A program made the position numbers and the translations under genes. From a virus (Duplodnaviria; Heunggongvirae; Uroviricota; Caudoviricetes), in IMG/VR virus record IMGVR_UViG_2718217867_000004, positions 1 through 40,589 of that record: a stretch of 40,589 nucleotides of DNA. One strand, 5' to 3'. The notes under the pieces were generated by a model. It made no database searches and was not told where the DNA came from. It saw only the letters and a list, made by a program, of their open reading frames with translations. This document shows, piece after piece, positions 20,943 through 36,058 of the stretch (position 1 is the stretch's first letter; the number at the start of each line of letters is the position of its first letter).

Positions 20943-21653
20943 ATTCAGATTTGATATGTATGGGACGTGGAGCGAATACAACAAAGCCCGTCAGAACAGG
21001 CCTCAAAAAAAAGCCAGCTCTGGGGAGGCTGGCAGGAATGAAAAATGACTCTCGAGATTATTCATCACAAAACGGATTACTTTGCGCTGAACAGAATGCT
21101 CCTTCATCGTATATTTCTCAACTGGAGAGACTCATTTTCAGATTTTGTTATCTGTCATATTGACAGTCCCCACTTCTCCGGGGTAGTGAAGTAAGTGGCG
21201 TTTGCTTCCTGTAAATACCCGAGGGTTATCCATGATCTCTTGTATAAGGCATTCCTCAGTGGACTAATTTCGGAGTTATCATCCCGTTCAATTTCATCCA
21301 GGATCCCCTACTAAATAAGTTCACCATTCTTCAGGTGGCAGTTTCTTTCAGCCAGCCGTGCACTCAACAGCATATTCTTGTCGGACTCAGAATAACTCCT
21401 GCAAATGCAACAATGATGGCCGTCGCCCCAATAACCTTGTGCTGCCCGCATCTGTAAAAAGCGAAGGCCCCAAATTACCAGAATAAAACTGAGCAGATAT
21501 CCGACCTTCGTTACCGCATTGACTTCATTGTCTCATACACCAGGAGCAGCGAATTGCAAAGGATGAAGCACGCCCCATGAAGATTCTCCCAAAAACTATA
21601 ATTGTAAAAACCAAAGTAGCGGAAGCGAGCACTTGTAACCCCGAACTTTGAAT

Positions 21654-21680
21654 AAAAAAAAACCGCCTGGAGCGGCGGTT
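21654..21680 (-). terminator. Rho-independent terminator downstream of the tRNA pair
   Basis: Minus-strand hairpin ACCGCCGCTCCAGGCGGT followed by T9. Confidence 0.6.
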
Positions 21681-22032
21681 AATGGCATATAAAAACGCAT
21701 GATTTAATTTTATTCAGAAGTGTCGGGTGCCACCCGAAGCATCCAGCCCCACAAGGATACTGTGGTTTCCCGCTAAACCGACTCTTTAAACCACCCTCGC
21801 ACTGAGGAACACCTCTGTAGTGTTTTTACAACACCGGGATAGTGCATCATCAGCCCTGCCAGGAAATACTAAATCTCCACCGATAATGCACCATTCCATT
21901 GTTGTAAAAAATCAGCACTGAGGCTATAACCGACCTCAAACCATAGCCTGAGGACCAAAGATGTATTAAAACAACCTGCCCCCACGTAAAAAAACACGCC
22001 AGTGCTGTATAATTCGTGTTGCCAGAATAATG

Positions 22033-22107
<75 letters not shown>

Positions 22108-22110
22108 CAT

Positions 22111-22186
<76 letters not shown>

Positions 22187-22352
22187 CATTGGTTCCTCAG
22201 GTGTGGATGAGATGCCCGGATACATAAATTACCCTCCCTTGGAACCGACGAAGAATAATAATGAATTCCGCTCCTGTTTCAATACAAACAATGTCAGGTA
22301 TTTAAAACATAATTATACAATATTATAAAAATTAAAAAGTTCGCAAAAAAAG

Positions 22353-23399
22353 TTAACTATTGTTTCTTACTTCATCAACCGTTTGATTAAACCTATCCGT
22401 TTCCAGCTCTACACCAATAGCTCTACGTTCCAGATAGAGCGCAGCCTTTATAGTCGCCCCCGATCCCATAAAAAAGTCTGCAACCAGTTCCCCCGGACGA
22501 CTGCTGGCTGTAATTATCTGCCGCAACATATCTGCTGGCTTCTCACACGGATGTTTACCCGGATAATACTGCACAGGTTTGTGCGTCCAGACATCCGTAT
22601 AAGGAACGGCAGCTGATACGGAAAAATAACGCCGCAAAGATTTATACTCTTCCAGCAGGCTGACATATTGCCGGTTCAGTTCGCTGTATGTGCTGACCAG
22701 ATGGTGGTGTGGCTTTTCCAGTTCTCCGCGTTGATGTTTTTCTGCTGCAACACGCGCAAACAACGCCTGCAGCTTTCTGTAATCAGCTTCGTTCGGTAAC
22801 TGCCACTGGCTGGCACCAAACCAGTGCGAAGCCATGTTTTTCTTTCCGGTGGCTTCCGCTATCTGTTTCGGCGTTATCCCCAGTGATTCACGCGCATCAC
22901 GAAAGTAAGAAATCAGCGGAGCCATGACATGCTGTTTAAGCTCGCGCCCCTTTGCCACATAGCCATCATTTTTTGGCCGATATGGCCCCTGGTAATGTTC
23001 AGCAAACAGTATGTGCTCTGTTGCCGGGAAATATGCCCTCAGGCTTTCCTTCCTGCACCCGTTCCAGCGTCCGGACGGCTTCGCCCAGATGATATGGTTA
23101 AGCACGTTGAAATGTTCACGCAACATGATCTCGATATCAGATGCCAGACGATGCCCACAGAACAGATAAAGACTTCCGGCGGGCTTCAGTACCCGCCAGA
23201 ACTGCGCCAGACACTGGTCCAGCCACTTCAGGTAATCATCGTCACCCTTCCACTGGTTATCCCAGCCCTCGGGCTTCACTTTAAAGTATGGCGGGTCTGT
23301 GACTATCAAATCGACAGAGTTTTCCGGTAAGGTCTGGATAAATCCCAGGCAATCAGCGTTGATTAACTCACAACTGGATATTTTTACAGTGTTAACCAT
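22353..23399 (-). CDS. DNA methyltransferase (N6-adenine/N4-cytosine, beta class), orphan
   Basis: 348 aa; N-terminal DPPY motif (VTDPPYF) and C-terminal FxGxG motif (FFMGSGAT); no adjacent restriction endonuclease gene. Confidence 0.9.
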   Translation of the reverse strand: MVNTVKISSCELINADCLGFIQTLPENSVDLIVTDPPYFKVKPEGWDNQWKGDDDYLKWLDQCLAQFWRVLKPAGSLYLFCGHRLASDIEIMLREHFNVLNHIIWAKPSGRWNGCRKESLRAYFPATEHILFAEHYQGPYRPKNDGYVAKGRELKQHVMAPLISYFRDARESLGITPKQIAEATGKKNMASHWFGASQWQLPNEADYRKLQALFARVAAEKHQRGELEKPHHHLVSTYSELNRQYVSLLEEYKSLRRYFSVSAAVPYTDVWTHKPVQYYPGKHPCEKPADMLRQIITASSRPGELVADFFMGSGATIKAALYLERRAIGVELETDRFNQTVDEVRNNS

Positions 23400-23620
23400 A
23401 GATCAATAAGCACTTCTCTGATAGGCTCATTCCGCTTTTGCGCAAAGCAGATGGGCCTGAGGTTTGCTTGTGACCCCAACGCATGAGCAGATGGCTGGCA
23501 GGTGCCGCTAACACCCACCAGCCGCCCATTACCACAAATAAAAAAGCCTTCACTGCGGAAGGCGTCTGTAACAACCGAACTGATAATCAGCCAGGCCCGC
23601 CATAACAAGCTGGGTCAGTA

Positions 23621-23740
23621 TTAGCGCTCGCGTGAAAGGTAAGTATTCTGCGCAATCTCCCCGACGGTCGCCGGTTCGGTGACGCTTAATTCATTAAACA
23701 CAACTCTGGCGGTTTCGGTCATATCCTGCTGTTTTAGCAT
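23621..23740 (-). CDS. Small hypothetical protein (39 aa)
   Basis: Start at MLKQQDM with a weak AAGGGA SD; the longer track ORF needs a GTG start. Confidence 0.25.
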   Translation of the reverse strand: MLKQQDMTETARVVFNELSVTEPATVGEIAQNTYLSRER

Positions 23741-23861
23741 GTCTTTTTCCCTTTTCTGGTTAACGTGACATACCAATAACTCATGTCGAAAAAGCCAGCA
23801 AGCAGAAAGACCAGTATTAATAACCACAGCACATTTAACGCACTGCGCTACTTTGCGAGCA

Positions 23862-23885
23862 CAAAAAACCCGCTCAGAGGCGGGT
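23862..23885 (-). terminator. Rho-independent terminator downstream of the CPBP gene
   Basis: Minus-strand hairpin CCCGCCTCTGAGCGGG followed by T6. Confidence 0.6.
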
Positions 23886-24025
23886 TCAGGCTATGCAGTG
23901 AAATAACCACTCTTAAAAGCATACATGATTTTTTACGTACGTAAATACTTTGCCGTGCATATTTCTCATGCAAATGTCACATCCTGCTATTTTTCAGTGT
24001 TATAAATTTAAGGCCATAGAAAAAA

Positions 24026-24850
24026 TCAATTATGTTTTAAGAATGGATAGGTAAAGAATAACAAGTGACACAGATTCAGACCAAAATGGAAAAGGGTTGC
24101 CACCCACAAGCGCCCACTCCACATCCATGACAATCCATACACAACACCAGATAACGTGGCAAATAATACAAGTAAAGCACCACCTGAATAGTGAAAAAGA
24201 CCAAACAACAAAGACGCCACAATTAACGCAATCAATGGAGACGTTACTTCTGATAGCCGTGATTGAATATACCCTCTAAATAATGATTCCTCTGCCAGAG
24301 ACACAAAAAACAAATTAGCCAATATAAACTCTGGCAACCACTCAGGAAAATGAATCTCTGGCTTTAACCCACCAAAAAAAACAGCCCAAAAAAGGATAAG
24401 AGGAACAGAGAGCAACAGAGCCCCCCATTTCCACAAAGACACTTCTGATTTCACTTCTTTTTTAAACAAAGAAGCTGTACACAGGACTAACAAAAATGGC
24501 ACCAGCGCTTTATCAAAATTAAAATACATTGTATAGGGAGTGCTTTGAGGTCCGACAGTAACAGACTTTAGCACTACAGGATTGTGAAACCCTGGCCATA
24601 AATGGAAAGATAATGCTATGGCTGATAAAACTATGCCAGCTTCATATATGGATTTAGCCCAGGCGTTATATTTCCAGTTGAACTTCAAAATAATAAAAAA
24701 AACGATTGTAGCAACAAAAAACAACACAGGCCAATCAATAATATCATTAAGCACAGCCAGGACAACAGACACCGTCAACAATGAAAAAGCCACTACCTTA
24801 TGCCAACTGAGAGTTGACAGTGACAGTGCTAACACAATCCACATAAACAC
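24026..24850 (-). CDS. CPBP family intramembrane metalloprotease (CAAX protease / Abi family)
   Basis: 274 aa polytopic membrane protein with EExxxR (LAEESLFRGY), FxxxH (FGLFHYS) and a second His motif (LFHFGLN); strong AAGGAG SD; markedly low GC; first gene downstream of Q. Confidence 0.85.
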   Translation of the reverse strand: MFMWIVLALSLSTLSWHKVVAFSLLTVSVVLAVLNDIIDWPVLFFVATIVFFIILKFNWKYNAWAKSIYEAGIVLSAIALSFHLWPGFHNPVVLKSVTVGPQSTPYTMYFNFDKALVPFLLVLCTASLFKKEVKSEVSLWKWGALLLSVPLILFWAVFFGGLKPEIHFPEWLPEFILANLFFVSLAEESLFRGYIQSRLSEVTSPLIALIVASLLFGLFHYSGGALLVLFATLSGVVYGLSWMWSGRLWVATLFHFGLNLCHLLFFTYPFLKHN

Positions 24851-24994
24851 TCCTTTTATTTAATGATGAAGATTGATTATCAATATTTTCAATTCACCTG
24901 GCAACATTTTGTTTACTTTCCATAAAATTCACGACCACAAAATAAACACATTGATTATAAACATAGGAAACATAACCATAGTCACTATATATCC

Positions 24995-25369
24995 CTACCG
25001 CATATCCATATCTAACCTGACATTCAGAGCCATAAGCATTCCTTCAATAATACCTTCTGCTTTATAAAGTCTTTTACCAATAAGCCCATCAGAACATCTA
25101 TGCTTACGTGCAAGAGCCATAAATGTCATTCCACCTACGTAATAATCCACCAACAAATTGTGCAAATACTGATTATTCTTGTTTAATCGTGCCATACAGC
25201 CACAAATTATCATGGCGTCATCATCAGAACACTGAGGACGTGATTTCACTTTAGCCGGGATTAATCCTTTAAAACCAGCAGCTATCGAGGGCCATGTTAC
25301 ATCTTCATGATTATTTGCTGCCCATGCTCCCCACCGCTCCATAACCAGCTGAATATCACGCAACATCAT
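24995..25369 (-). CDS. Late-gene antiterminator Q (933W-type Q family)
   Basis: 124 aa; closely matches the Stx-phage 933W Q sequence as I recall it (RDIQ...[16 protein letters not shown]...IICGCMARL...GMLMAL). Confidence 0.9.
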
Positions 25370-25727
25370 TACATCCTCTTATTACGAATATATTCACACC
25401 CAGTCGCCCACCGCAAACAGGCAGACCACGCACAATATTGATTTCATCAAACTGCTCGTCGTCTATGAGTAGTCCGGCATGCGTCAGCGCATCCAGTGGT
25501 GCTTTCAGGATATTGTCCAGGTCACGACGGCGCTTATCCGGTGGCTCTGCAATAATCTTTATCGCCAGCCTTCCGGACAGGTTTAATTTCAACCGCTGCT
25601 GGCAAACAATTAGCGCCACATCACGGCGATAACGCTTTCCGGCTTCTGAGATGAAATACGTATTGCCATGACGTCGCCAGTAGGTATTCACCGTCGGCGG
25701 GTAAGGCAAAACAAACTCTATACGCAT
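25356..25727 (-). CDS. rusA: Holliday junction resolvase RusA
   Basis: 123 aa; [20 protein letters not shown] motif matches the RusA active-site region. Confidence 0.9.
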
Positions 25728-25739
25728 CAGTAACCTCTT

Positions 25740-26789
25740 TTACCCAAGCACGCCGGTTGCAAAGGCGTGATCAAGAAAACGAAAAATTAAATCAACCTGG
25801 GAACCATGCTTTTCTTCGAACGCCTGCGGATCTGCATGAAGTTCGTTGTGATGTTCCCGACACAGCGGCAACGTAAAAATATCGTGGGCTTTTGTCCCCA
25901 TCCCGCCCTGACCGTGACCAATCAGGTGATGGGGATCGTCTGCTGGCTTACCACAACACGTACACGGCTGTGTCTTCACCCAGCGCGTATATTTCTCATT
26001 TACCCAACGGCGACGTTTAGGCCGCCTCATGAAAGATTCCGGTGACTCCGGATCAACGGTGATGCTGACCACCGTCTTTTCCTGTGGTGGGTTTTGTTGC
26101 TGGTGGGCGTGAGATGGCTGCACAAGATTTTTTGTGCGCTGCTTCAGTACGCTGGTGGCTGTCTGCTCTCCCGGTATGATGTCGCTTTCGCGGTACACCG
26201 AGCGGATTTTTTCCGCACGCAATCCCAGAGAACGACGTAATACTGCCTCCGGAAGCGCGTCCGCCACTTGATTGCAGACCGCCCACCAAGATAATTCAGC
26301 TAGCGATAACTCTCGCTCCTGTGTGCCATTCATTGCGTGACGGATGACGTCAATCATCCATGCTGACAAGTTTTGGTGAGCTAGTAGCCCGAGTGATTCG
26401 GAGGTCTGGTCACGCAACTGGTTGTCGCAGTGCCAGCACAACACCATCGCGCCAGAGTCATAACGGTGAATGACGGTTTCACTGTGGTGATAATCGCCGT
26501 GTGGCCACTGGCAGGATTTAACATGGCGCAGTAACCAGTGAGACAATGCGCCAGCGCCACCAGCAGCACGAATCACTCGTTCGTCGCTGAAAAATGACAG
26601 TAATGATTTATCCTCCGCCAGCGGCTGGCGAACGGCAGGGACGACTCCGGACGGCAGACCGAGCATGCTTTTCGGTTCCGGCTCCACCAGCACTCGAGGA
26701 TTGTGAAATACCTGCATGGATTCACGACCTGGTTTAAGGACCACCAGCCCGAGTTCCGGTACCAGAACAGGTCGAAGTAATACCCGCAC
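25740..26789 (-). CDS. DUF968-like protein with C-terminal HNH-type zinc-binding motif
   Basis: 349 aa; C-terminal CTCCGKPADDPHHLIGHG...CREHHNELH; nin-region position upstream of rusA; start codon uncertain (GTG in the track). Confidence 0.7.
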   Translation of the reverse strand: MRVLLRPVLVPELGLVVLKPGRESMQVFHNPRVLVEPEPKSMLGLPSGVVPAVRQPLAEDKSLLSFFSDERVIRAAGGAGALSHWLLRHVKSCQWPHGDYHHSETVIHRYDSGAMVLCWHCDNQLRDQTSESLGLLAHQNLSAWMIDVIRHAMNGTQERELSLAELSWWAVCNQVADALPEAVLRRSLGLRAEKIRSVYRESDIIPGEQTATSVLKQRTKNLVQPSHAHQQQNPPQEKTVVSITVDPESPESFMRRPKRRRWVNEKYTRWVKTQPCTCCGKPADDPHHLIGHGQGGMGTKAHDIFTLPLCREHHNELHADPQAFEEKHGSQVDLIFRFLDHAFATGVLG

Positions 26790-26790
26790 G

Positions 26791-27063
26791 TTACCTCCAG
26801 ATCCGTTGCTGGAATGTGCGGGACGGACGCGGTGGGCGTTCGGAGTAAGGAAGCCTGACGGAGATTATCCAGTGACGATAATCGAGGCTGAGGGCTTTCT
26901 TAATCTCGTATCCGTGTCTGCGGTAGCACTGAATTAGCCATTCAGCTTGTTCTTCAGTACATGGGGGATGCTGGTACCAATCAGATTTAAATGCGCGAGA
27001 GCGCCGCCCGTGCCTGCTGGCAAGGTCGGTATCAGAATTGTGATGTTTGGTATTGTGCGCCAT
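26791..27063 (-). CDS. Hypothetical nin-region protein
   Basis: Start placed at the first ATG (MAHNTKHH); the track's longer ORF needs a TTG start. Confidence 0.45.
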   Translation of the reverse strand: MAHNTKHHNSDTDLASRHGRRSRAFKSDWYQHPPCTEEQAEWLIQCYRRHGYEIKKALSLDYRHWIISVRLPYSERPPRPSRTFQQRIWR

Positions 27064-27249
27064 CTGTTTTCTCTGCAGGCGCAGCAGGTGCCAGTTGTTC
27101 AGGCTGGCGTGCGGCAATATTGTCTCTGATTTCTGTTGTCGTCAACCGCTTCTGCGCTTACTCACTTGATGAGTGAGGCGATTAACTTTACTATTTACTT
27201 AACAGGTTTTTCCTGTACCACAATTCCCCAATACAGGAGGCCATCATGA

Positions 27250-27582
27250 GTGACGACAAAAAAATTGAGTTCAGCACCAGCTGATGTGTTGAATGCTTTA
27301 CTCCATCGCCATCAGAATATGCAACATCTTGCAACACAGGAAAGCGTTGATAACTTACGTCGCGAGATTGATAGTCGATTTAATGCTTCACAAGAAAACG
27401 TTGATAATCTGCGTCGGGAAGTCGATAGTCGCTTTAACTCTTTGCAAAATCAGTTAATGTCGGTTGATAAGCGTCTGGATAAACTGGAAACCAAGTTTGA
27501 CCGACTCCAGTGGTTTATCGTTGCCGCTGCTCTGGCACTCATCTTTAAAGATTACATCCTCAGGTTTATGGGTGCTTTATAA
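27250..27582 (+). CDS. Coiled-coil protein with C-terminal transmembrane helix (membrane-anchored)
   Basis: 110 aa; internal repeat (SVDNLRREIDSRFNASQ / NVDNLRREVDSRFNSLQ), C-terminal hydrophobic helix; GTG start 10 nt after an AGGAGG SD, with an ATG four bases upstream in another frame; convergent with hok. Confidence 0.55.
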   Translation: MTTKKLSSAPADVLNALLHRHQNMQHLATQESVDNLRREIDSRFNASQENVDNLRREVDSRFNSLQNQLMSVDKRLDKLETKFDRLQWFIVAAALALIFKDYILRFMGAL

Positions 27583-27585
27583 AAC

Positions 27586-27609
27586 CATAAAAAACCCGCC
27601 GAAGCGGGT
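27586..27609. terminator. Bidirectional terminator between the coiled-coil gene and hok
   Basis: Hairpin CCCGCCGAAGCGGG flanked by an A-run upstream and TT downstream on the plus strand; strong T-run on the minus strand. Confidence 0.6.
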
Positions 27610-27678
27610 TAAGTGCGGGTGCGTTGAGGATGCCTGACACATCAGAGGTGGCGAGGGATTTCTCCCCCGCCTGGTCTC

Positions 27679-27834
27679 TTACTCCTCAGGTTCGTAAGCT
27701 GTGAAGACAGCGACCTCCGTCTGGCCGGTTCGGATTCGTACCTCGCAGAGGTCTTTCCTCGTTACCAGTGCCGTCACTATGACGGTTAAACAGATGACGA
27801 TCAGGGCGATTAACATCGCCTTTTGCTGCTTCAT
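27679..27834 (-). CDS. hokD: Hok/Gef family type I toxin (HokD/RelF-like)
   Basis: 51 aa MKQQKAMLIALIVICLTVIVTALVTRKDLCEVRIRTGQTEVAVFTAYEPEE: single TM helix plus the conserved Hok motif; matches the HokD sequence as I recall it. Confidence 0.9.
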   Translation of the reverse strand: MKQQKAMLIALIVICLTVIVTALVTRKDLCEVRIRTGQTEVAVFTAYEPEE

Positions 27835-27892
27835 AGCCTGCTTCTCCTTGCCTTTCGGCACGTAAGAGGCTAATCTTCAGTTGTCGAGACAT
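27686..27892 (-). CDS. mok-like overlapping reading frame (modulator of killing)
   Basis: 68-codon ORF starting upstream of hok and overlapping it in another frame, as in hok/mok/sok loci. Confidence 0.45.
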   Translation of the reverse strand: MSRQLKISLLRAERQGEAGYEAAKGDVNRPDRHLFNRHSDGTGNEERPLRGTNPNRPDGGRCLHSLRT

Positions 27893-28264
27893 AAGACTGG
27901 CCTCACTTCGATTTATAGTCGGGTGGGGCTTTTCTCTATCTGCCGTTGGTGTTCATGCCCGAGGCAGATAGCCTCAAGCACCCGCAGCAATTCTACTTAA
28001 CTCCCATCACCTCGCCAATATGAAATCAATCAGAAAGGTGATCCATGAGAACAATAACAAGACAATAAATTGCCATTACAGCCACAATAGCCAGCGCGCA
28101 TTTCAGAACCAGCACGATAACCTCCCACATTTAGCGTGCACGTGCATGATAAATATGTGTCCGTGTTATCACAGCAGCAATAGAAGATAAGATTTCGTTA
28201 TGTCGATATTTAACTCTGTGCGTTAAGCGCCCTGCTTATGTACACAAGGCGCGTTCTTAATGCC

Positions 28265-28348
28265 TTACCCCCAGCGGCAAATCGAATACACCACCAGCGC
28301 CACCGCCATCGCAATTCCTGCCGTTGCAAATGCTTCAGGCCAGCTCAT
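28265..28348 (-). CDS. Small hydrophobic peptide (27 aa), hypothetical
   Basis: ATG overlapping the DUF551 stop (ATGA) with a GGAGGTGA SD; peptide MSWPEAFATAGIAMAVALVVYSICRWG is one TM helix; below the ORF-track cutoff. Confidence 0.35.
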   Translation of the reverse strand: MSWPEAFATAGIAMAVALVVYSICRWG

Positions 28349-28725
28349 TGACTCACCTCCTGCGGCGGTTCCGGTAGCTGCATCCAGTGAGTTGCTTGCT
28401 CAATACCATTACCCGGCTTAATCGTTGCATCTCCGCGCCGAAAGGTGCTTCCGGTATAGCGTGCGGAGCATATTAGCGGTTCAACCAGAGAGCTATCGAA
28501 ATTCACTGAAATAAGCACGTTCTCGCCCTTTTCAGGCATTCGCGCACTACAGCTTATCCAACCATCCGGAGTTACCGGATAGTTGCGCATTGCGATCTTA
28601 AATACCTCATAGAAGCAACCTTTCAGATTATTGAACTGACGCCCGTTCAGAGGGCCATGTTCTGTCAATATGTTGTGTAATTTCCATGCCGCGTCGTTAA
28701 CTTCGTTGGATGACATGGGAGGCAA
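28345..28725 (-). CDS. DUF551-like phage protein
   Basis: 126 aa ORF in the nin region; family assigned from memory of the sequence type. Confidence 0.7.
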   Translation of the reverse strand: MPPMSSNEVNDAAWKLHNILTEHGPLNGRQFNNLKGCFYEVFKIAMRNYPVTPDGWISCSARMPEKGENVLISVNFDSSLVEPLICSARYTGSTFRRGDATIKPGNGIEQATHWMQLPEPPQEVSQ

Positions 28726-28746
28726 CTTGCAAGTTTGGCTTACAGG

Positions 28747-28869
28747 TTATGCTTCCAGCGAGGCTAACGCTATTTCATAAGCTCGGCGCTCAATATTGTC
28801 TCTCACGTCCAGGCTGCCTATGCGCTCTTTGATTTCTTTAATCATTTCTTTGTCGGTAAAAGTGCTCAT
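28747..28869 (-). CDS. Small hypothetical protein (40 aa)
   Basis: MSTFTDKEMIKEIKERIGSLDVRDNIERRAYEIALASLEA with an AGGAG SD 7 nt upstream; below the track cutoff. Confidence 0.4.
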   Translation of the reverse strand: MSTFTDKEMIKEIKERIGSLDVRDNIERRAYEIALASLEA

Positions 28870-28870
28870 A

Positions 28871-29470
28871 TCAATCTCCTTTGGTACCAATGTTTACAGC
28901 CTGGCAAGCCTCTTTGAGTACCCAATCAACAGCGTCTTTCCATGCTCCGGTTTCGACTGGCGGATTTTCACGCTTAACCTGTTCATAGAAGCGCACTGCT
29001 TTAACCAGTCCTTTCGGTACTACTGGCGATGGCTGTTTGGCTTCCAAATCAGCAATTCTGTCAACCACGGCATCGACGGCATCTGAAAAGCCGAACCAGT
29101 TACTCCACTCCGGCCTGTTACCGGTTGCTGCAAAGTACATATCATCTAAAGCAGACTCAGCATGGTCACGCTCATTGATGAGTTGTTCTTCGCTTTTCTC
29201 CAGTTCTGCTATGCGCTTGTTTTGGGTTTCCCGTTCATCCAGCAACTCCTGCGCTACTTCTGGGTTGAAAGCTGCGATATAACGAGCGTTGTTCTCTGCG
29301 TTTTTCTGTTCGTCGAATCCAGGCCAGTCGACAATATCTCCGTGATGATTATCTCCTGGTGTGTGCACGGCGTACGTGCCGTGTTTGCCCGGCGAAATAA
29401 ATGCGCCCCATTCGCCCTGTGTTGCCTGTTTTGCTATCTCACGCAGTGCCTGATAGTTAATTTCTCTCAC
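28871..29470 (-). CDS. Ead/Ea22-like protein
   Basis: 199 aa; N-terminus (INYQALREIAKQATQGEWGAF) typical of the Ead/Ea22 family; GTG start overlapping the upstream stop. Confidence 0.75.
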   Translation of the reverse strand: MREINYQALREIAKQATQGEWGAFISPGKHGTYAVHTPGDNHHGDIVDWPGFDEQKNAENNARYIAAFNPEVAQELLDERETQNKRIAELEKSEEQLINERDHAESALDDMYFAATGNRPEWSNWFGFSDAVDAVVDRIADLEAKQPSPVVPKGLVKAVRFYEQVKRENPPVETGAWKDAVDWVLKEACQAVNIGTKGD

Positions 29471-29687
29471 TTCGAACCTCTCTGTTTACTGATAAGCTCC
29501 AGATCCTCCTGGCAACTGGTACAAGTCCGGCCCCCCTTAACGGCCAGTCGCCGCCGTTTATCTATCGGCTCGCCACACTCACAACAATGAGTGGAGGATA
29601 CGGAACGAAAATTTGTCTGGTATTTTGCAGGGCACTATTGCGCTGAAGTTCTTCGATCTCTGATGCCTGATCGGCAATATCAGCCAT
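29467..29687 (-). pseudogene. TraR/DksA-family C4 zinc-finger gene, frameshifted
   Basis: N-terminal frame MADIADQASEIEELQRNSALQNTRQ... stops after 41 codons; the -1 frame encodes the zinc finger ...HCCECGEPIDKRRRLAVKGGRTCTSCQEDLELISKQRGSK up to a stop overlapping the Ea22 start; frames meet near a T4 run at about 29606-29613. Confidence 0.6.
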
Positions 29688-29862
29688 TTTGTTCTTCCTC
29701 TTCGTCTTTTATTTCGTAATATGAGTAATTGCAGTAGTTAAAGAAAATTTCTTTTGCTTCGTCATTTATTTCATCAGGTGTCGCATCATCGTCCACTTCG
29801 AATACATCCTCAAAATTTCCACCAGCTATTCCCGTTTCAATAATTATTTTGAACTTTCGCAT
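29680..29862 (-). CDS. Small acidic hypothetical protein (60 aa)
   Basis: ATG with an AAGGA SD; AT-rich; stop overlaps the start of the TraR-like gene. Confidence 0.4.
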   Translation of the reverse strand: MRKFKIIIETGIAGGNFEDVFEVDDDATPDEINDEAKEIFFNYCNYSYYEIKDEEEEQNG

Positions 29863-29957
29863 ATTGCTACCGTCCTTTCGGGCAGCCTCCTGATGTTCTG
29901 AGGGTGCAGAAATCCCTCCGGTTAAGGATTAAATTAAATTTGCTGTGCTAAATTTAA

Positions 29958-30413
29958 TTATTCAGTTTTTATTCCCGTTCTCAAAACAGCCTCTGCCATT
30001 CTGATATCCGGATTTTCTGAAATCATCTTTTCTGGCGAATCGCAGTCACCACCACATTCAGTTATGCGTTCATGACCCAAACGAATTGTGGTTTTATGCG
30101 CATTAATCATTTGTGTAAGCGCGTCTGTCAATTCTGCAATGCGATTTTTTGCTGCATCCAGCTCGTCCAGCAGTGACAGTACGTCAGGATCGCTAACATC
30201 AACGACGGTTACACGCGATTTCAGGTAATGCTCATCCGCAAAAGTTCGACCAAACTTTAAATATCCATCATCCCCCTCGCCTGTGCAGGCATACACAATA
30301 TGCGTTCCGGAAGATATGCGCTGCATCGACATTTCCTCGCCACAAACAGAGCATTCAGGTACTGGCTTAGGTGAATAACGTTCCCGTAGCGCCTGATAAT
30401 CAGTCTTGCTCAC
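29958..30413 (-). CDS. Zinc-ribbon-containing hypothetical protein
   Basis: GTG start with a perfect AGGAGG SD 6 nt upstream, overlapping the DUF4406 gene end; N-terminal CSVCGEEM...YACTGEG and C-terminal ECGGDC cysteine clusters. Confidence 0.5.
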   Translation of the reverse strand: MSKTDYQALRERYSPKPVPECSVCGEEMSMQRISSGTHIVYACTGEGDDGYLKFGRTFADEHYLKSRVTVVDVSDPDVLSLLDELDAAKNRIAELTDALTQMINAHKTTIRLGHERITECGGDCDSPEKMISENPDIRMAEAVLRTGIKTE

Positions 30414-30705
30414 TGGCTGCCTCCTGAAAAATAACCGCATGTCCCAGTTTCTCCGCCAGCGCCAGTTCTGCCTTAGCGCCTGCCGACCGCTGCCAGCCTT
30501 TCAGCATGTAAATCGCATCCACGCAACGAATCATTGCCATACAGATATCCATGTAATGCGGCTGTGTCAGCCCGTCCGGAAGCACTGCCGGATTCAGGAC
30601 GGTATGCCCTTCCCGTTTCAGTTCCTCTTCCGCCTTGTGAAATGCCTCACGGTTGAAATTTTCATACCCCGTCATTGGACCGGCGATAGAAACCCTCACT
30701 CTCAC
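30400..30705 (-). CDS. DUF4406-like protein (nucleoside 2-deoxyribosyltransferase-like fold)
   Basis: 101 aa starting MRVRVSIAGPMTGYENFNREAF, the signature N-terminus of this family. Confidence 0.75.
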   Translation of the reverse strand: MRVRVSIAGPMTGYENFNREAFHKAEEELKREGHTVLNPAVLPDGLTQPHYMDICMAMIRCVDAIYMLKGWQRSAGAKAELALAEKLGHAVIFQEAASEQD

Positions 30706-31019
30706 TCCTGAACCCTCCTGTCGAAATAAACATAGTTATTCACCGTGCGCAGCGGCATTTCGAATTTTTCCGCTATCTCGCGACGTGAAATGCCCTGCTC
30801 ATGTAGCTGTCGTATCACCTCAACGCTGCTCCGGGGCATTTTTACCGACTGGTGAAAATCACCCCGCAACATCAGACTGATACCCAGTTCCCGCGCTTTT
30901 GTTCTTACTGCCGCCTCCGTACGCCCCGTCAGCTTCCCGATGTCTTTCACCCGCATGGTTCCCGCACACTGCCGGAGTATCAGGGTTTCAGCCCTGCACC
31001 ACGTCTTCCGGTTGCCCAC
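30702..31019 (-). CDS. Putative HTH DNA-binding protein (NinH-like C-terminus)
   Basis: Two HTH-like segments (DIGKLTGRTEAAVRTKARELGI; ISRREIAEKFEMPLRTVNNYV); start uncertain (GTG at 31019, GTG at 31106 or ATG at 30956). Confidence 0.45.
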   Translation of the reverse strand: MGNRKTWCRAETLILRQCAGTMRVKDIGKLTGRTEAAVRTKARELGISLMLRGDFHQSVKMPRSSVEVIRQLHEQGISRREIAEKFEMPLRTVNNYVYFDRRVQE

Positions 31020-31021
31020 TG

Positions 31022-31768
31022 CTATTGTTCTCCGGTAGCTGCAATCTTCCGGAGAATATCCCTGTGTTTGTTCAGCTCCCGCAGCGCAGCACAGACACGC
31101 TCCCACTTCCGGATATCACTTTTCACCCTACGCAGCTCGCGGTTTGCCTGTCGCAGCGATGGCAGAACCAGATTATCCACTCGCTTTTCCGTTACCGATG
31201 ACTGCGACTGTACAATGTCCGCCACAGTTTCTGTTTTAATATCTTCCTGTGCTGCAGCTTCCTGTACTGGTAACGCAACACCTGCTGGCTGAGGAAAGGC
31301 TTTACCATTGGTTTCCGCTACCGATTCAACTTTCGGCTCTACTGGTAAATTATCACCCGGTATGCAGTAACGAAATTTACCGTTCTGATTTACGCGAATC
31401 AGGCGTCCTTTGCTGATTGCCATAGCCAGCGTTGAAGCCACTTTGCGTGATGTGGTACCGAACAACGTAGCCAGTTCATCCGCAGTTAGTGGACCACGTT
31501 GTTCAATCGTCGCGGTTAAATCGCACTCCGGTATTTTCGCGACTGTTGCCGTGGTGGTTTCTTCCGGCGGTTCTGCCTGCTCTGGCTGTTCCTGCTGAGC
31601 GTTGTTATCAGCCACACGCCAGGTGTATACGCTTTTATCAACGAAACCAGCCTTTTTCAGCTCCCACAGCTCGTTCAGCACTTCTTCACGACTGATATCA
31701 AGTCGCGCAGCCAGCTCTACCGACGTGGCTTTGCCCATTGCTTTCAGTGCGTCAAAAACGGTTTCCAT
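31022..31768 (-). CDS. Winged-helix-like protein (DUF1627-like), hypothetical
   Basis: Start placed at [13 protein letters not shown] (GGGAGA SD); central Pro/Glu/Gln-rich linker; sits between the DnaC-like gene and the nin region. A 1-nt mismatch between my stop reading and the track coordinates is unresolved. Confidence 0.55.
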
Positions 31769-31790
31769 AAAATTTTTCTCCCGGTAAAAA

Positions 31791-32537
31791 TTACTTCTCT
31801 GTTCCTGGCTGACCGACATTCGAACGCCAGCTTTCCCAGTTAAAATTCACCCAGCGACCACCGTTCATGGTCATGCGGTCCATCACTCGCTCTCCCAGAA
31901 GGGTGCTCATCGCGGTATGGTTCAGGTTCGTCAGCATCCCGACACTGCGCATCGAAGCCGTTCTGCGGTCGACTATCTGGTTCAGAGTGACCTGTTCATT
32001 GCGTGTATCACGCTGCATGCCAATCTCATCCAGAACCAGCAGGTCAACGTTGCACAATCCCTGCAAAAACTTTTCACCCGAGTTTTTGTTGTCGTAGCTG
32101 CCGTGCAACGCCAGCATCACATCAGCCACAGTGACCACAATCACACTCCGCCCCTTCGCCAGAAGATGGTTGCCGATGGCTGCCGCAAGGTGATTTTTTC
32201 CGGTACCCGGCTTACCGCTGAACACGAAATTTGTGCACCTGGTCATAAGTTCGTCCGCGATGGATTTTGCATGACTCAGCGCGTGGCGTTGCCCGTCGTT
32301 CTGCACCCGGTAATTCGCAAACGAACACTTCTGGTGCAACGGCTGGATACCCGAACGGTTCAGAATTTTTTCCGCATGAATCTTGTTATTCAGGCGATTA
32401 ATCTCCTCACTACGTTTTCGCCCTTCAGCAAGCCACCACTCGTACCACTCTTCCCGTGTCCGGTACGGCGCGGTTACATGCTGTGGGGCCAGTCTGCGGA
32501 TACGTTCAAGAACACCGCTTGCCGCAATATTTTTCAT
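31791..32537 (-). CDS. DnaC-like helicase loader (IstB-type AAA+ ATPase)
   Basis: 248 aa; Walker [18 protein letters not shown] and Walker B LLVLDEIG. Confidence 0.9.
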
Positions 32538-32543
32538 GGTCAG

Positions 32544-33350
32544 TTACCCCCTGAAGCCTGGCGGGATCGCACTATCCGGTAACGAGACGGTGTTAACCTG
32601 TCGGAGTAACGTCTCAGGTCGAACACCTTTCGGCGCGAACAAGCCCTGGTATTCATTGGCGATGCTGTGTCGAATCACCTGCTCAGGTGAAAAACCCTGC
32701 TGGCGGAATTTTTCCAGCTCCCGTATCGCCCCGTTAGCGCCCTGCTCCGTTCGAATCGGTTTTCGCAATGCCTGGCGAAATTCAACCCACTCACGCCAAA
32801 GCGAGACAGAAATCCAGTTCGGCAAAGCAATATCCAGAGGGTCAAACTTTTTGACACCTCGATTCCCCCGGGGGGGATTTAGGGGGGGATCTGTTTTTAG
32901 ATCTTTATCTGTATCTTTATTAGTTGCCTTTGTGTTCGCGCCATGTTCAAACACCATTTCAACGTCTGTTTGAACACCTGTTAAATTTCGCTCGTGTTTT
33001 GTTTGAGCATATGATTCCTTTCTGTTTCTCCTGGCCTGAACAGATGCTTTTCCCGCAGCCGATTTTTTTATTGATTTTTCCCTGACTGATGCCAGATCTT
33101 CCTCAATCCGAAGGTGCATCCATTCATCGCCGTTATCGCAAAAAAACTCCCGCAAGGATGGTTCAACATCAGCCCATCGCTCGTTAGTCAGACGGGCAAT
33201 TTTTGCCAGCCTGTTTTTAGGTATTGGCTTTCCTGTTTGCCAGTAATTGAACATCAGTAACAAATACGCACCATGCTCCTCTGCTGACAAATGCATGGTG
33301 TCGGCCAGGTAATCAGCTATGTACAGTTGCATGTATGGTAATGCGGCCAT
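32544..33350 (-). CDS. Replication initiation protein (YdaU-like N-terminus, DnaT-like C-terminal domain)
   Basis: 268 aa; N-terminus MAALPYMQLYIADYLADTMHLSAEEHGAYLLLMFNYWQ, basic linker, C-terminal DnaT-like region; sits upstream of the DnaC-like gene as in the Rac ydaU-ydaV arrangement. Confidence 0.75.
   Translation of the reverse strand: MAALPYMQLYIADYLADTMHLSAEEHGAYLLLMFNYWQTGKPIPKNRLAKIARLTNERWADVEPSLREFFCDNGDEWMHLRIEEDLASVREKSIKKSAAGKASVQARRNRKESYAQTKHERNLTGVQTDVEMVFEHGANTKATNKDTDKDLKTDPPLNPPRGNRGVKKFDPLDIALPNWISVSLWREWVEFRQALRKPIRTEQGANGAIRELEKFRQQGFSPEQVIRHSIANEYQGLFAPKGVRPETLLRQVNTVSLPDSAIPPGFRG
32841..32940. promoter_or_regulatory. Candidate replication origin inside the initiator gene
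   Basis: GTCAAACTTTTTGAC palindrome, CCCCCGGGGGGG and GGGGGGG tracts, two GATCT units (Dam sites) and an A/T-rich stretch, all within the linker-coding region. Confidence 0.4.
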
Positions 33351-33420
33351 AATTGCCTCTTCTGATACCGAATCTCTTAATCACGCACTACCGGAAGCGA
33401 TCCAGTATAAATATTGCCAG

Positions 33421-33845
33421 TCAATGCACCGCCACGGCATTTCCTGCCGGACCACCGCGATTCATCTGGTCGAACAGAACGATCGCTGATGCAACGAACT
33501 CATCGATATCTTTCACCAGCCGATCCCGTCGCTCGACAATCTCCCGGTGATACTCCGAACTGTGACTACGCATTCGGGCCACCAGCGGTGGCGGCATTGC
33601 CTTTTCGATCGCTGGTAACAACGCCTGAATTTTTTAACCGCATCAGGAGTATCTTTCTCCACCCAGCGGAAAATTTTCTGAGTATTGCGAGCCAGGGCTT
33701 CTGGGTGTGAATCGTCGTACAGTTCCGGAAACGTCATACCCAGCTCAAAATAAGCCCGGGTTATTTCAGCCGCCGGAACTTTTTCACCGTCCGGATACGC
33801 CCAGGCATTCATCGCCATGCGGATGTGTTCATGCTTGATTTTCAT
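33421..33845 (-). pseudogene. YdaT-like gene split by a frameshift in an A6 tract
   Basis: N-terminal ORF (33513-33845, MKIKHEHI...) and a +1-frame ORF (33421-33621) overlap; inserting one A in the AAAAAA run at about 33628-33633 joins them into a single ORF of about 140 aa. Confidence 0.55.
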
Positions 33846-34057
33846 GAATCATTCTTTCCTTCGTTCGAGGTGTTATCCTGCTTCTTGTAAAGTTCTGGAT
33901 TGTATTTCAATTCACCGTTAGTAATTTCATCCAGCTCCATTGCGCGAAGTTTGGGAATAACTGCTTTCCACCGCACAACAGCCACATGTGAAATTCCAAG
34001 AGCCTCAGCTACTAGTCGCTTTTTTTTGAAATAGCGCAGAACATCATCTTTGAACAT
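33842..34057 (-). CDS. Cro-like HTH regulator (YdaS/Cro family)
   Basis: 71 aa with HTH KKKRLVAEALGISHVAVVRWK; divergent from cI across an operator-bearing gap; ATGA overlap with the YdaT-like gene. Confidence 0.8.
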   Translation of the reverse strand: MFKDDVLRYFKKKRLVAEALGISHVAVVRWKAVIPKLRAMELDEITNGELKYNPELYKKQDNTSNEGKNDS

Positions 34058-34085
34058 AAAACTCTCCTGTTATTTCGAACAAGAG

Positions 34086-34150
34086 GGTAACAATAGTTAC
34101 ATAATGATGTCAACCATAGTAACATTACTTGGTAGTAACATTGGTTACAT
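34086..34150. promoter_or_regulatory. OR-like operator cluster between cro and cI
   Basis: Three sites with inverted GTAAC/GTTAC half-sites (GGTAACAATAGTTAC, GTAACATTACTTGG, GTAACATTGGTTAC) in the divergent promoter region. Confidence 0.6.
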
Positions 34151-34823
34151 GAAAAACACTATCAGCGAACGTATTCGGAATCGTCGAAAAGACGTTGGAC
34201 TAACTCAACAGCAGGTTGCGAAAGCAATCGGCATATCTCGCGTATCCGTAACAAAATGGGAAAATGGCTCTTCAAAACCTGACGGTGAGAATTTGCATCT
34301 GCTGTCAAAATTGCTTTCCAAATCTCCTGAATGGATTCTTTATGGAAAGGATGGTCACGATAAAACCGACGATCTGCGTCTGAATCAGCACCTTTACATT
34401 AGTGACAACATCGCCCGGTTGCCCGTTTTAACGTGGGAACAGGCTGGTTATTGGGATATGAGTTGCCCAGTAACCGAGATTCCTGGTATTAAGAATTGGG
34501 TTGATGTCATGACAAAAACCGCTGAAAACTCTTTTTTATTGCGCGTTGAGGGAGATGCGATGACGAACTCTAACGGCCTCCCAACCATCCCCGACGGATC
34601 TACCGTGCTGATCACTCCATGCTCAAGTAACATTAGAGAACTGGTGGGAAAAATAATCTTAATCCAATTGGAAGGAACGCCGAACGTAACACTAAAAAAA
34701 GTTGCGATTGACGGACCAAACATCTATCTGCTGTCACTGAATCCGCTTTACAAACCCATTGAACTGAATGGTGGTTACACTATTAAAGGTAAAGTTTCAC
34801 AAATACATCAATATTTAGACTGA
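34149..34823 (+). CDS. cI-like repressor (N-terminal HTH, C-terminal S24 LexA-like peptidase domain)
   Basis: HTH (LTQQQVAKAIGISRVSVTKWENG) and S24 autocleavage domain (VEGDAMT...KGK); start chosen at MKNTIS just after the operators; the track ORF begins at 34050. Confidence 0.85.
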   Translation: MKNTISERIRNRRKDVGLTQQQVAKAIGISRVSVTKWENGSSKPDGENLHLLSKLLSKSPEWILYGKDGHDKTDDLRLNQHLYISDNIARLPVLTWEQAGYWDMSCPVTEIPGIKNWVDVMTKTAENSFLLRVEGDAMTNSNGLPTIPDGSTVLITPCSSNIRELVGKIILIQLEGTPNVTLKKVAIDGPNIYLLSLNPLYKPIELNGGYTIKGKVSQIHQYLD

Positions 34824-36000: not shown

Positions 36001-36058
36001 TTTTCTGGTGACGTTTGGCGGTATCAGTTTTACTCCGTGACTGCTCTGCCGCCCTTTT
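36001..36058 (+). ncRNA. dicF: DicF small RNA
   Basis: TTTCTGGTGACGTTTGGCGGTATCAGTTTTACTCCGTGACTGCTCTGCCGCCCTTTTT matches the DicF sequence as I recall it, with its intrinsic terminator; lies upstream of dicB. Confidence 0.85.

Follow-up and report, generated by a model that had tools for sequence, protein, structure and literature searches.

Does the Hok reading frame in the viral DNA examined here stand within a complete type I toxin-antitoxin locus, or is it what remains of one? Loci of the hok type are enriched in prophages and Hok has been found in thousands of them (bioRxiv survey), and in that recent large survey Sok and Mok were explicitly left unanalysed. We looked beyond the toxin gene in IMG/VR record IMGVR_UViG_2718217867_000004, a 40,589-nt stretch from a member of the Caudoviricetes that is referred to here as the window. 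Positions 27589-28018 on the minus strand very probably constitute a complete hok/mok/sok locus of the hokD/hokW type that is apparently intact, with promoter, tac, ucb, the mok ATG and its Shine-Dalgarno sequence (SD), dcb, the hok SD and ORF, fbi and terminator all unimpaired. The presence, order and conservation of these elements, together with both of the RNA conformations that they can adopt, were established in silico.

The surroundings of the locus were defined by comparison with a prophage of E. coli PapM-36-2, to which window positions 21107-34399 are 99.7-99.9% identical. Annotation of that prophage runs from Cro/CI, YdaT, YdaU and a DnaC-like gene through Ea22-like and DUF551 genes to hokD, DUF968, RusA, antiterminator Q and tRNAs. 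This gene order bears out the original prediction of a nin-type setting that lacks relBE: hok belongs to the nin-type (delayed-early) part of a lambdoid prophage, points in the same direction as the early operon and has no relBE at its locus in the window. In the PapM-36-2 copy, an IS element of 1.1 kb, flanked by a duplication of 6 bp, has inserted at the equivalent of window positions 27843-27848 and separates the hok SD from the sok -35 hexamer; in the window, this locus is uninterrupted.

The hok toxin gene (27679-27834, minus strand) encodes 51 amino acids and is preceded by the SD AAGGAG at 27843-27848. It agrees with K-12 hokD in 156 of 156 nt, its protein is identical to HokD, and the product matches both the Pfam family HOK_GEF (PF01848; E=1.2e-23, score 82.9 vs a cut-off of 22) and phrog_251, "MokW-like host killing" (2.8e-33). 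The predicted HokD-identical toxin is thus substantiated at the nucleotide as well as the family level. A transmembrane (TM) segment is predicted at residues 8-24, and the codon for Tyr47 is UAC in a UACG context (27693-27696). Judged by these matches, the ORF would encode a small membrane toxin (~50 aa) of the Hok/Gef family, and HokD was toxic when used as a control in the bioRxiv survey. The ORF list and frame analysis further revealed an overlapping mok frame of 68 codons (27686-27892, minus strand), as had been suspected. Its ATG at 27892 lies 58 nt upstream of the hok start, its own SD (GAGG, 27901-27904) lies 8 nt before that ATG, and the frame, which is out of register with hok, stops 7 nt before the hok stop codon. 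The Mok product matches phrog_37205 at 1.5e-29 and DUF5431 weakly, and hok would presumably be translated through mok. One point here weighs against our main reading, in that this mok frame is atypical for its subfamily. Of 86 related leaders, 76 have the upstream ATG in the hok frame, so that Hok is extended to 70 aa, and in 9 this ATG opens a 19-codon uORF; an out-of-frame mok of 68 codons occurs, among the 86 mRNAs, in the window allele only. We take the out-of-frame arrangement of the window to be the one that is present in plasmid R1.

A promoter for hok is found at 27990-28018 (minus strand), where the hexamers TTGGCG (-35, 28018-28013) and TAGAAT (-10, 27995-27990) are separated by a 17-nt spacer and were matched at 9 of 12 positions in a promoter scan. 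Transcription is predicted to start at G27983, with the promoter ending 7 nt before; this nucleotide is position 1 of Rfam model RF01794 and coincides with the conserved GGGTGCTTGAGG in the 86 leaders. At the other end, a terminator scan identified an intrinsic terminator (27587-27610, minus strand) that consists of a stem at 27593-27610 followed by a U-tract. The predicted full-length mRNA extends from 27983 to 27589 on the minus strand (~395 nt) and folds with a minimum free energy (MFE) of -161.7 kcal/mol (z = -5.8 vs shuffles). The terminator had been supposed to be bidirectional and common to hok and a convergent coiled-coil gene. This idea had to be dropped: the hairpin scored on the minus strand only, neither the sequence nor the terminator scan gave a T-run after it on the plus strand, and the U-tract exists in the hok direction alone.

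To describe the folding of this mRNA, we located the elements of the R1 hok/sok locus in the window and found the sok promoter hexamers, tac, ucb and fbi, as the original prediction had proposed should be looked for. On the minus strand, tac (GGGUGCUUGAGG, 27972-27983) forms the 5′ end of the mRNA; ucb (AAGCCCCACCC, 27921-27931), an element defined in PMC9841398, is the anti-SD of mok; dcb (GCCUC, 27866-27870) directly adjoins the sok -10 hexamer of the opposite strand; and the fold-back inhibition element fbi (CCUCAACGCACCC, 27617-27629) lies downstream of hok. In the MFE fold of the full-length RNA, nt 1-12 (tac) pair with fbi while AAGCCCCAC (ucb) pairs with the mok SD region, yielding a closed form. 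The predicted long-range pairing of tac with fbi between the 5′ and 3′ ends is also part of the RNAalifold consensus, and all 86 sequences retain it, the only changes in the fbi pairs being from G-C to G-U. Folds of the leader alone (27840-27983) and of a 3′-truncated mRNA (27638-27983) gave an alternative, open form, in which tac would pair with ucb around a 5′ stem-loop and the mok SD (GAGGC) would pair with dcb (GCCUC) in a hairpin that presents the mok start. Closed and open conformations related by this switch have been described for the R1 hok mRNA (PMC9841398).

The 5′ stem-loop (27936-27971, minus strand) has 9-bp arms, CTATCTGCC at 27936-27944 and GGCAGATAG at 27963-27971, and corresponds to an inverted repeat that had been placed at about 27930-27965. 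The repeat is real, although that placement was imprecise and its right arm lies a few bases further right; its interpretation as a fold-back element did not hold, as the true fbi is the one found downstream of hok. The stem-loop is present in every fold, is the first helix of RF01794, and in 4 sequences shows a compensatory change of one pair from A-U to G-C. As modelled, the repeat is a conserved 5′ stem-loop that adjoins tac and is closed off by the tac stem; it is not fbi. A 3′ stem-loop (GGCGGGGGAGAAAUCCCUCGCC, 27650-27671, minus strand) appears in the folds of both the full-length and the truncated mRNA; its pairs are kept across the 86-mRNA alignment with one compensatory change, and it is likely to be the protective 3′ end of the processed mRNA. 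By RNAalifold, compensatory changes occur in three helices, namely the 5′ stem-loop, the helix between ucb and the mok SD (in short and long forms) and the 3′ stem-loop.

We then asked whether a Sok gene lies opposite this leader. The Rfam family "sok" (RF01794) matches window positions 27829-27983 over the full length of the model with 116.8 bits, as compared with a gathering score of 59 (E = 4e-26), a match to a curated model that is far beyond chance and argues for membership of this family. Because the match is on the hok-sense strand and the 3′ end of the model holds the hok SD and AUG, it denotes homology of the leader and sok region rather than the antisense transcript itself. Inspection of the plus strand revealed a candidate sok promoter at 27848-27876, with the -35 hexamer TTGCCT (27848-27853), a 17-nt spacer and the -10 hexamer TAATCT (27871-27876). 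These hexamers fell below the threshold of a generic promoter scan; they align with the positions of TTGCGC and TATCCT in an R1-type locus, and the region is identical to the CCTTGCCTTTCGGCACGTAAGAGGCTAACC of prophage Sp5 (primer YO-597) but for one base in the -10 hexamer. The predicted Sok RNA of ~55 nt would extend from about 27883 to 27937 on the plus strand. In its fold (-19.5 kcal/mol, z = -2.8) the first 11-16 nt stay unpaired as a 5′ tail, a hairpin occupies 27899-27929 and UUUUCUCU forms the 3′ end; the single-stranded 5′ tail is complementary to the mok start region, so that the modelled RNA would have the shape expected of a Sok. A sok-like antisense RNA had been expected at about 27850-27930; the promoter hexamers, the hairpin with its free tail and the match to the sokW region are consistent with this expectation and would place the predicted gene at ~27848-27937.

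These elements suggest a model in which transcript ends, processing, RNase III cleavage, toxicity and biological role are all drawn by analogy from the R1 and Sp5 systems. The weak promoter at 28018-27990 would give rise to a stable mRNA of ~395 nt, from 27983 to 27589. In the full-length RNA, tac would be paired with fbi and the mok SD held by ucb, leaving mok and hok untranslated and Sok binding barred. Slow 3′ trimming would then remove fbi and permit refolding, with tac pairing with ucb and the mok SD with dcb, such that the mok start is exposed in a hairpin. As long as the element is present and quiet, the short, unstable Sok (~27883-27937, plus strand) would pair through its free 5′ tail with the mok start region, blocking translation of mok and hence the coupled translation of hok and marking the duplex for RNase III. 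When Sok synthesis stops, whether through loss of the DNA or upon prophage induction as shown for hokW-sokW, mok and hok would be translated, and the 51-aa Hok would enter the inner membrane and kill or lyse the cell. By the same analogy, the most likely role of the locus in the window would be to aid lysis and phage release on induction, or to stabilize the prophage.

The conservation of this arrangement was assessed in the 80 IMG/VR loci that encode an identical HokD and in an alignment of 86 unique full-length hokD-type mRNAs (that of the window and 85 related ones) assembled from IMG/VR, phage and E. coli loci. Mean column identity across the 86 mRNAs is 96%. Within loci that are otherwise ~96% identical, a block of ~27 nt around the mok start, which corresponds to the 5′ tail of Sok, is hypervariable, with a diversity of 0.27 per site vs 0.012 at the third codon positions of hok. 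There are at least 16 alleles of this block, all of which, by eye, are able to form the target hairpin, and the allele of the window is rare: among 5426 complete E. coli genomes, 16 have it. We speculate, tentatively and with more doubt than confidence, that the block is a specificity cassette, either often exchanged or subject to diversifying selection, through which co-resident lambdoid prophages could keep the same HokD under mutually orthogonal Soks. Among co-resident prophages the Sok alleles were the same in 1 case and different in 2, from only 3 usable genome pairs, which are too few to have power.

Upstream of the hok promoter are two further short ORFs whose relation to the toxin locus had to be clarified. 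A hydrophobic ORF with an SD had been noticed at about 28038-28130. Both the ORF (28026-28130, minus strand) and the SD exist, whereas relatives place the start not at the ATG at 28130 but at a GTG at 28115, so that the gene spans 28026-28115 on the minus strand, encodes the 29-aa peptide MLVLKCALAIVAVMAIYCLVIVLMDHLSD and is preceded by the SD GGGAGG (28121-28126). The peptide has a single TM segment. In a diverged homologue, MSDDISLAMEGALAVIAVVGVYCLVVFLMDRLGN, most of the changes are synonymous or conservative, and the core YCLV..LMD.L is kept; as many synonymous positions differ while the core is kept, we consider the ORF a real coding gene. Further upstream, a gene for a second membrane peptide of 27 aa (MSWPEAFATAGIAMAVALVVYSICRWG, 28265-28348, minus strand) overlaps the DUF551 gene at its stop codon. 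It is present in 27 of the 80 hokD loci, often abutting the hok promoter directly. Lack of conservation of the small ORFs had been named as something that would speak against the original prediction; the 29-aa and the 27-aa ORF are both conserved. Neither is annotated in the records inspected, and the 29-aa ORF is unannotated in all 4 matching phage records. No homologue of either peptide was found in the K-12 prophages DLP12, Rac and Qin, and YlcH, YlcG and YlcJ are unrelated to them.

It could be argued that the 29-aa ORF, the 27-aa ORF or both belong to the toxin-antitoxin system, as a second toxin or as a leader peptide controlling hok. Only 8 nt separate the stop codon of the 29-aa ORF from the hok -35 hexamer, with no terminator-like site in between, hok follows directly downstream in 58 of the 67 loci that have this ORF, and a peptide with a single TM segment resembles many type I toxins. 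Against this, hok is missing from the other 9 of the 67 loci, and the 29-aa ORF occurs in 21 of the 80 loci with an identical HokD and is missing from 59, many of which have the 27-aa ORF or unrelated DNA at the promoter. Promoter and terminator scans also disclosed no antisense promoter or hairpin opposite the 29-aa ORF, and the 27-aa ORF occurs in prophages that lack hok as well. We therefore regard membership in the system as quite unlikely, which corrects the original grouping of small hydrophobic ORFs with the hok/mok locus. The simplest reading is that they are separate, conserved terminal genes of the upstream early operon, outside the toxin-antitoxin locus. Because the terminator scan found no terminator-like site between the small ORFs and the hok promoter, transcription of the early operon probably runs into the hok/sok locus. 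If so, prophage induction might shut off Sok by way of this read-through, a step that the hokW-sokW study left open.

Two other explanations compete with an intact, mRNA-based system. The locus might be a silent relic which, like the K-12 chromosomal hok genes, looks like hok/sok and makes neither toxin nor antitoxin. Chromosomal hok loci tested earlier gave no post-segregational killing (cited in the bioRxiv survey), the IS that splits the hok SD from the sok promoter in the near-identical PapM-36-2 prophage indicates that such copies do get inactivated, the adjoining coiled-coil gene is frameshifted in the window, and the sok -10 hexamer is weak. Yet all elements in the window are intact from promoter through terminator, the full leader is there where K-12 hokD is reduced to SD, ORF and 3′ UTR, and hokW-sokW, a sister locus whose leader is almost identical, does function (PMC8621323). 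These considerations make a relic unlikely, though less so than a role of the small ORFs in the system. The perfect 9-bp palindromic pair at 27936-27971, just downstream of the promoter, could alternatively act at the DNA level, as a protein operator or as a terminator of the upstream operon, and not be part of the mRNA. This we consider very improbable: the repeat is inside the transcribed leader, where it makes up helix 1 of the Rfam model, is paired in every RNA fold and shows the compensatory change from A-U to G-C; moreover, neither strand has a T-run after it, and it was not among the sites reported by the terminator scan. Sub-threshold Rfam matches to isrK, rsmX, mir-1473 and fungal SRP were not accepted as evidence. 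The preferred reading thus remains a complete and apparently intact hok/mok/sok locus.

The convergent gene beyond the hok terminator was originally described as encoding a 110-aa coiled-coil protein with a C-terminal anchor. An ORF of this kind does exist at 27250-27582 (plus strand), opens with GTG and is called a CDS by PGAP, and we keep its description as coiled-coil and anchored; as a gene, however, it is a frameshift remnant whose real start is an ATG at 27246 with the SD AGGAGG (gene 27246-27582, plus strand). The frame from this ATG comprises 12 codons, MSDDKKIEFSTS, before a TGA at 27282-27284, and the remainder lies in the +1 frame. We conclude that the ORF is a remnant because homologous DNA lacks one base at 27281/27282 and because deletion of this base in the window restores a protein of 111 aa. 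Programmed +1 frameshifting at AGC-UGA was rejected, given the missing base in the homologues and the lack of any slippery or RF2-like context. By sequence, the protein is a member of an enterobacterial family that has no name and comprises 75 proteins; these begin with MSDDKKIEFSTSDVLNALLH (family start MSDDKKIEFSTSDVL, here the ATG at 27246) and end with a hydrophobic segment. The homologues, from E. coli, Photorhabdus, Salmonella, Erwinia, Serratia and Vibrio, range from 70 to 173 aa and vary in length with the number of 18-aa repeats, represented in the window by a 54-bp tandem repeat at 27335-27437. Searches for membership among XhlA-like or DUF1640-like proteins gave no significant family-profile match; coiled-coil matches below threshold were to a YwqH-like profile (25 bits vs a cut-off of 33.7), phrog_937 "hemolysin" (0.0066) and phrog_17872 (5e-7), and one distant homologue carries PF10779. 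The stop codon of this gene is ~10 nt from the hok terminator hairpin. Since homologues occupy the same prophage slot without a hok locus and with terminators of their own, the link to hok is incidental.

The module as such is canonical, of a known kind and of essentially known sequence. It cannot be called novel, as hokW-sokW of the Stx phage Sp5 has been characterized experimentally and prophage hok loci have been catalogued, and its biology goes no further than the hok/sok paradigm. What merits the attention of specialists is the hypervariable Sok-recognition block beside an invariant toxin and the lack of a visible terminator between the early operon and the hok promoter; with the two unannotated small membrane-protein genes and the idea that read-through triggers Hok, these are the leads worth keeping. 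Genome pipelines call the hokD CDS alone, missing mok, Sok and the two conserved small membrane-protein genes.

Comparison with named systems places the locus among its relatives. With plasmid R1 hok/sok, for which the locus of an IncFII plasmid was used, the window shares the architecture, including a mok that overlaps hok and a Sok, predicted in the window, in which a 5′ tail precedes a hairpin, and the RNA switch from tac/fbi and ucb/SDmok pairing to tac/ucb and SDmok/dcb pairing. The R1 locus differs in being plasmid-borne rather than on a prophage, its leader sequence is largely different, and its Hok is 42% identical to that of the window over 45 residues. The Hok of the IncFII plasmid is presumably an exact match to the R1 Hok sequence. 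K-12 hokD (relF, Qin prophage) has an ORF identical to that of the window and a nearly identical 3′ UTR with fbi and terminator, but in the upstream direction homology reaches no further than ~17 nt from the ATG, the point at which relBE has been fused in. The K-12 locus has thus kept SD, ORF and 3′ UTR and is without tac, ucb, the mok start and the sok promoter, whereas the window has the full leader and so displays the form that the truncated hokD had until relBE took the place of its leader. The closest full-length relative at the DNA level is the "gef" locus of PPompW prophages of O157 and of an O145 plasmid (LC567818, NZ_CP031350), which is 96% identical over the hok mRNA and has the same short type of Sok hairpin as the window, and differs in its recognition block (CCCTATATGCTCGTCACATATAGATTGCC), its -35 region and its flanking genes (paa, rem).

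A close system of known function is hokW-sokW of Sakai prophage 5, an Stx2 phage, a working type I toxin-antitoxin pair for which both toxin and antitoxin activity have been shown (Takada et al. 2021, PMC8621323). Upon mitomycin C treatment sokW becomes depleted and HokW is induced, a response that depends on RecA, and deletion of hokW-sokW halves phage release (PMC8621323). A tblastn search of the 12-22 kb part of the 933W record did not find Hok, and our comparison with Sp5 is drawn from the primer sequences of the hokW-sokW paper. These primers reveal differences in the recognition block (GCTCAATCCATGCTGAACACATG), in the Sok hairpin, which is of the long form, in the upstream ATG, which is in frame with hok, and in the C-terminus of HokW (…DYESEK, primer YO-369). 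The two loci nonetheless have much in common: each is a hok/sok locus of a lambdoid prophage with a 51-aa toxin and a 27-aa ORF upstream (primer YO-432), and the leader sequence GCGGGTGCTTGAGGCTATCTGCCTCGGGCATGAACACCAACGGCAGATAG, 49 nt contained in the deletion primer, is identical to window positions 27985-27937.

Among hokD-type loci that encode an identical toxin, the segment in which the free 5′ tail of the predicted antisense RNA, Sok, would pair with the mok start region is hypervariable. In our alignment of 86 unique hokD-type mRNA sequences, this block (columns 107-134, window ~27866-27905) has a diversity of 0.27, as compared with 0.012 at the third codon positions of hok. It occurs in at least 16 alleles in the hokD-type loci, and these alleles differ in how the upstream ATG is phased with hok.

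Within the toxin gene, the Tyr47 codon lies in a UACG context (window 27693-27696, minus strand). A recent large-scale study of Hok reported A-to-I recoding at a hokD site; hokB is edited by TadA. The UACG at Tyr47 may correspond to that hokD site, although the residue is numbered Cys46 in the survey, which differs from Tyr47. In strain P4 the Tyr47 codon is TAA, truncating HokD to 46 aa.

We also inspected the neighboring genes. The small hydrophobic peptide ORF originally predicted near 28038-28130 proved to be a conserved gene at 28026-28115 (minus strand), encoding a 29-aa single-TM peptide whose family displays a clear pattern of synonymous substitution. A second conserved gene, for a 27-aa single-TM peptide, is located at 28265-28348 (minus strand). 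The two genes close the early operon, and neither is annotated in the phage and RefSeq records inspected. The convergent coiled-coil protein with a C-terminal anchor, originally predicted to have 110 aa, belongs to a tail-anchored gene at 27246-27582 (plus strand) that is frameshifted. Comparison with 75 homologues revealed a 1-nt insertion at 27281/27282, such that the frame from the conserved ATG is only 12 codons long; the GTG ORF of 110 aa that is annotated here is a remnant of the frameshifted gene. The same allele is found in E. coli PapM-36-2 and a few ENA contigs.

Elsewhere in the window, a full-length DicF sRNA was detected at 36003-36054 (plus strand; 76.7 bits), and downstream of the Q antiterminator region there are two tRNA genes (22037-22108 and 22115-22187, minus strand), Gly and Thr by annotation of the matching genome. 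In the hok 3′ UTR, the fold-back inhibition element and terminator are spanned by a sub-threshold Rfam match (27589-27670, minus strand; 30.5 bits against a gathering score of 50) to isrK, an sRNA borne on a Salmonella prophage; isrK and a hok 3′ end may share ancestry, or the match may be due to chance.

In the near-identical PapM-36-2 prophage, a 1.1-kb IS element (NZ_CP050646, 6750-7844 of the locus; equivalent to window 27843-27848) separates the hok SD from the sok promoter, accompanied by a 6-bp duplication and carrying an rve-type integrase annotated as partial. IS insertions have likewise inactivated hok loci on the K-12 chromosome.
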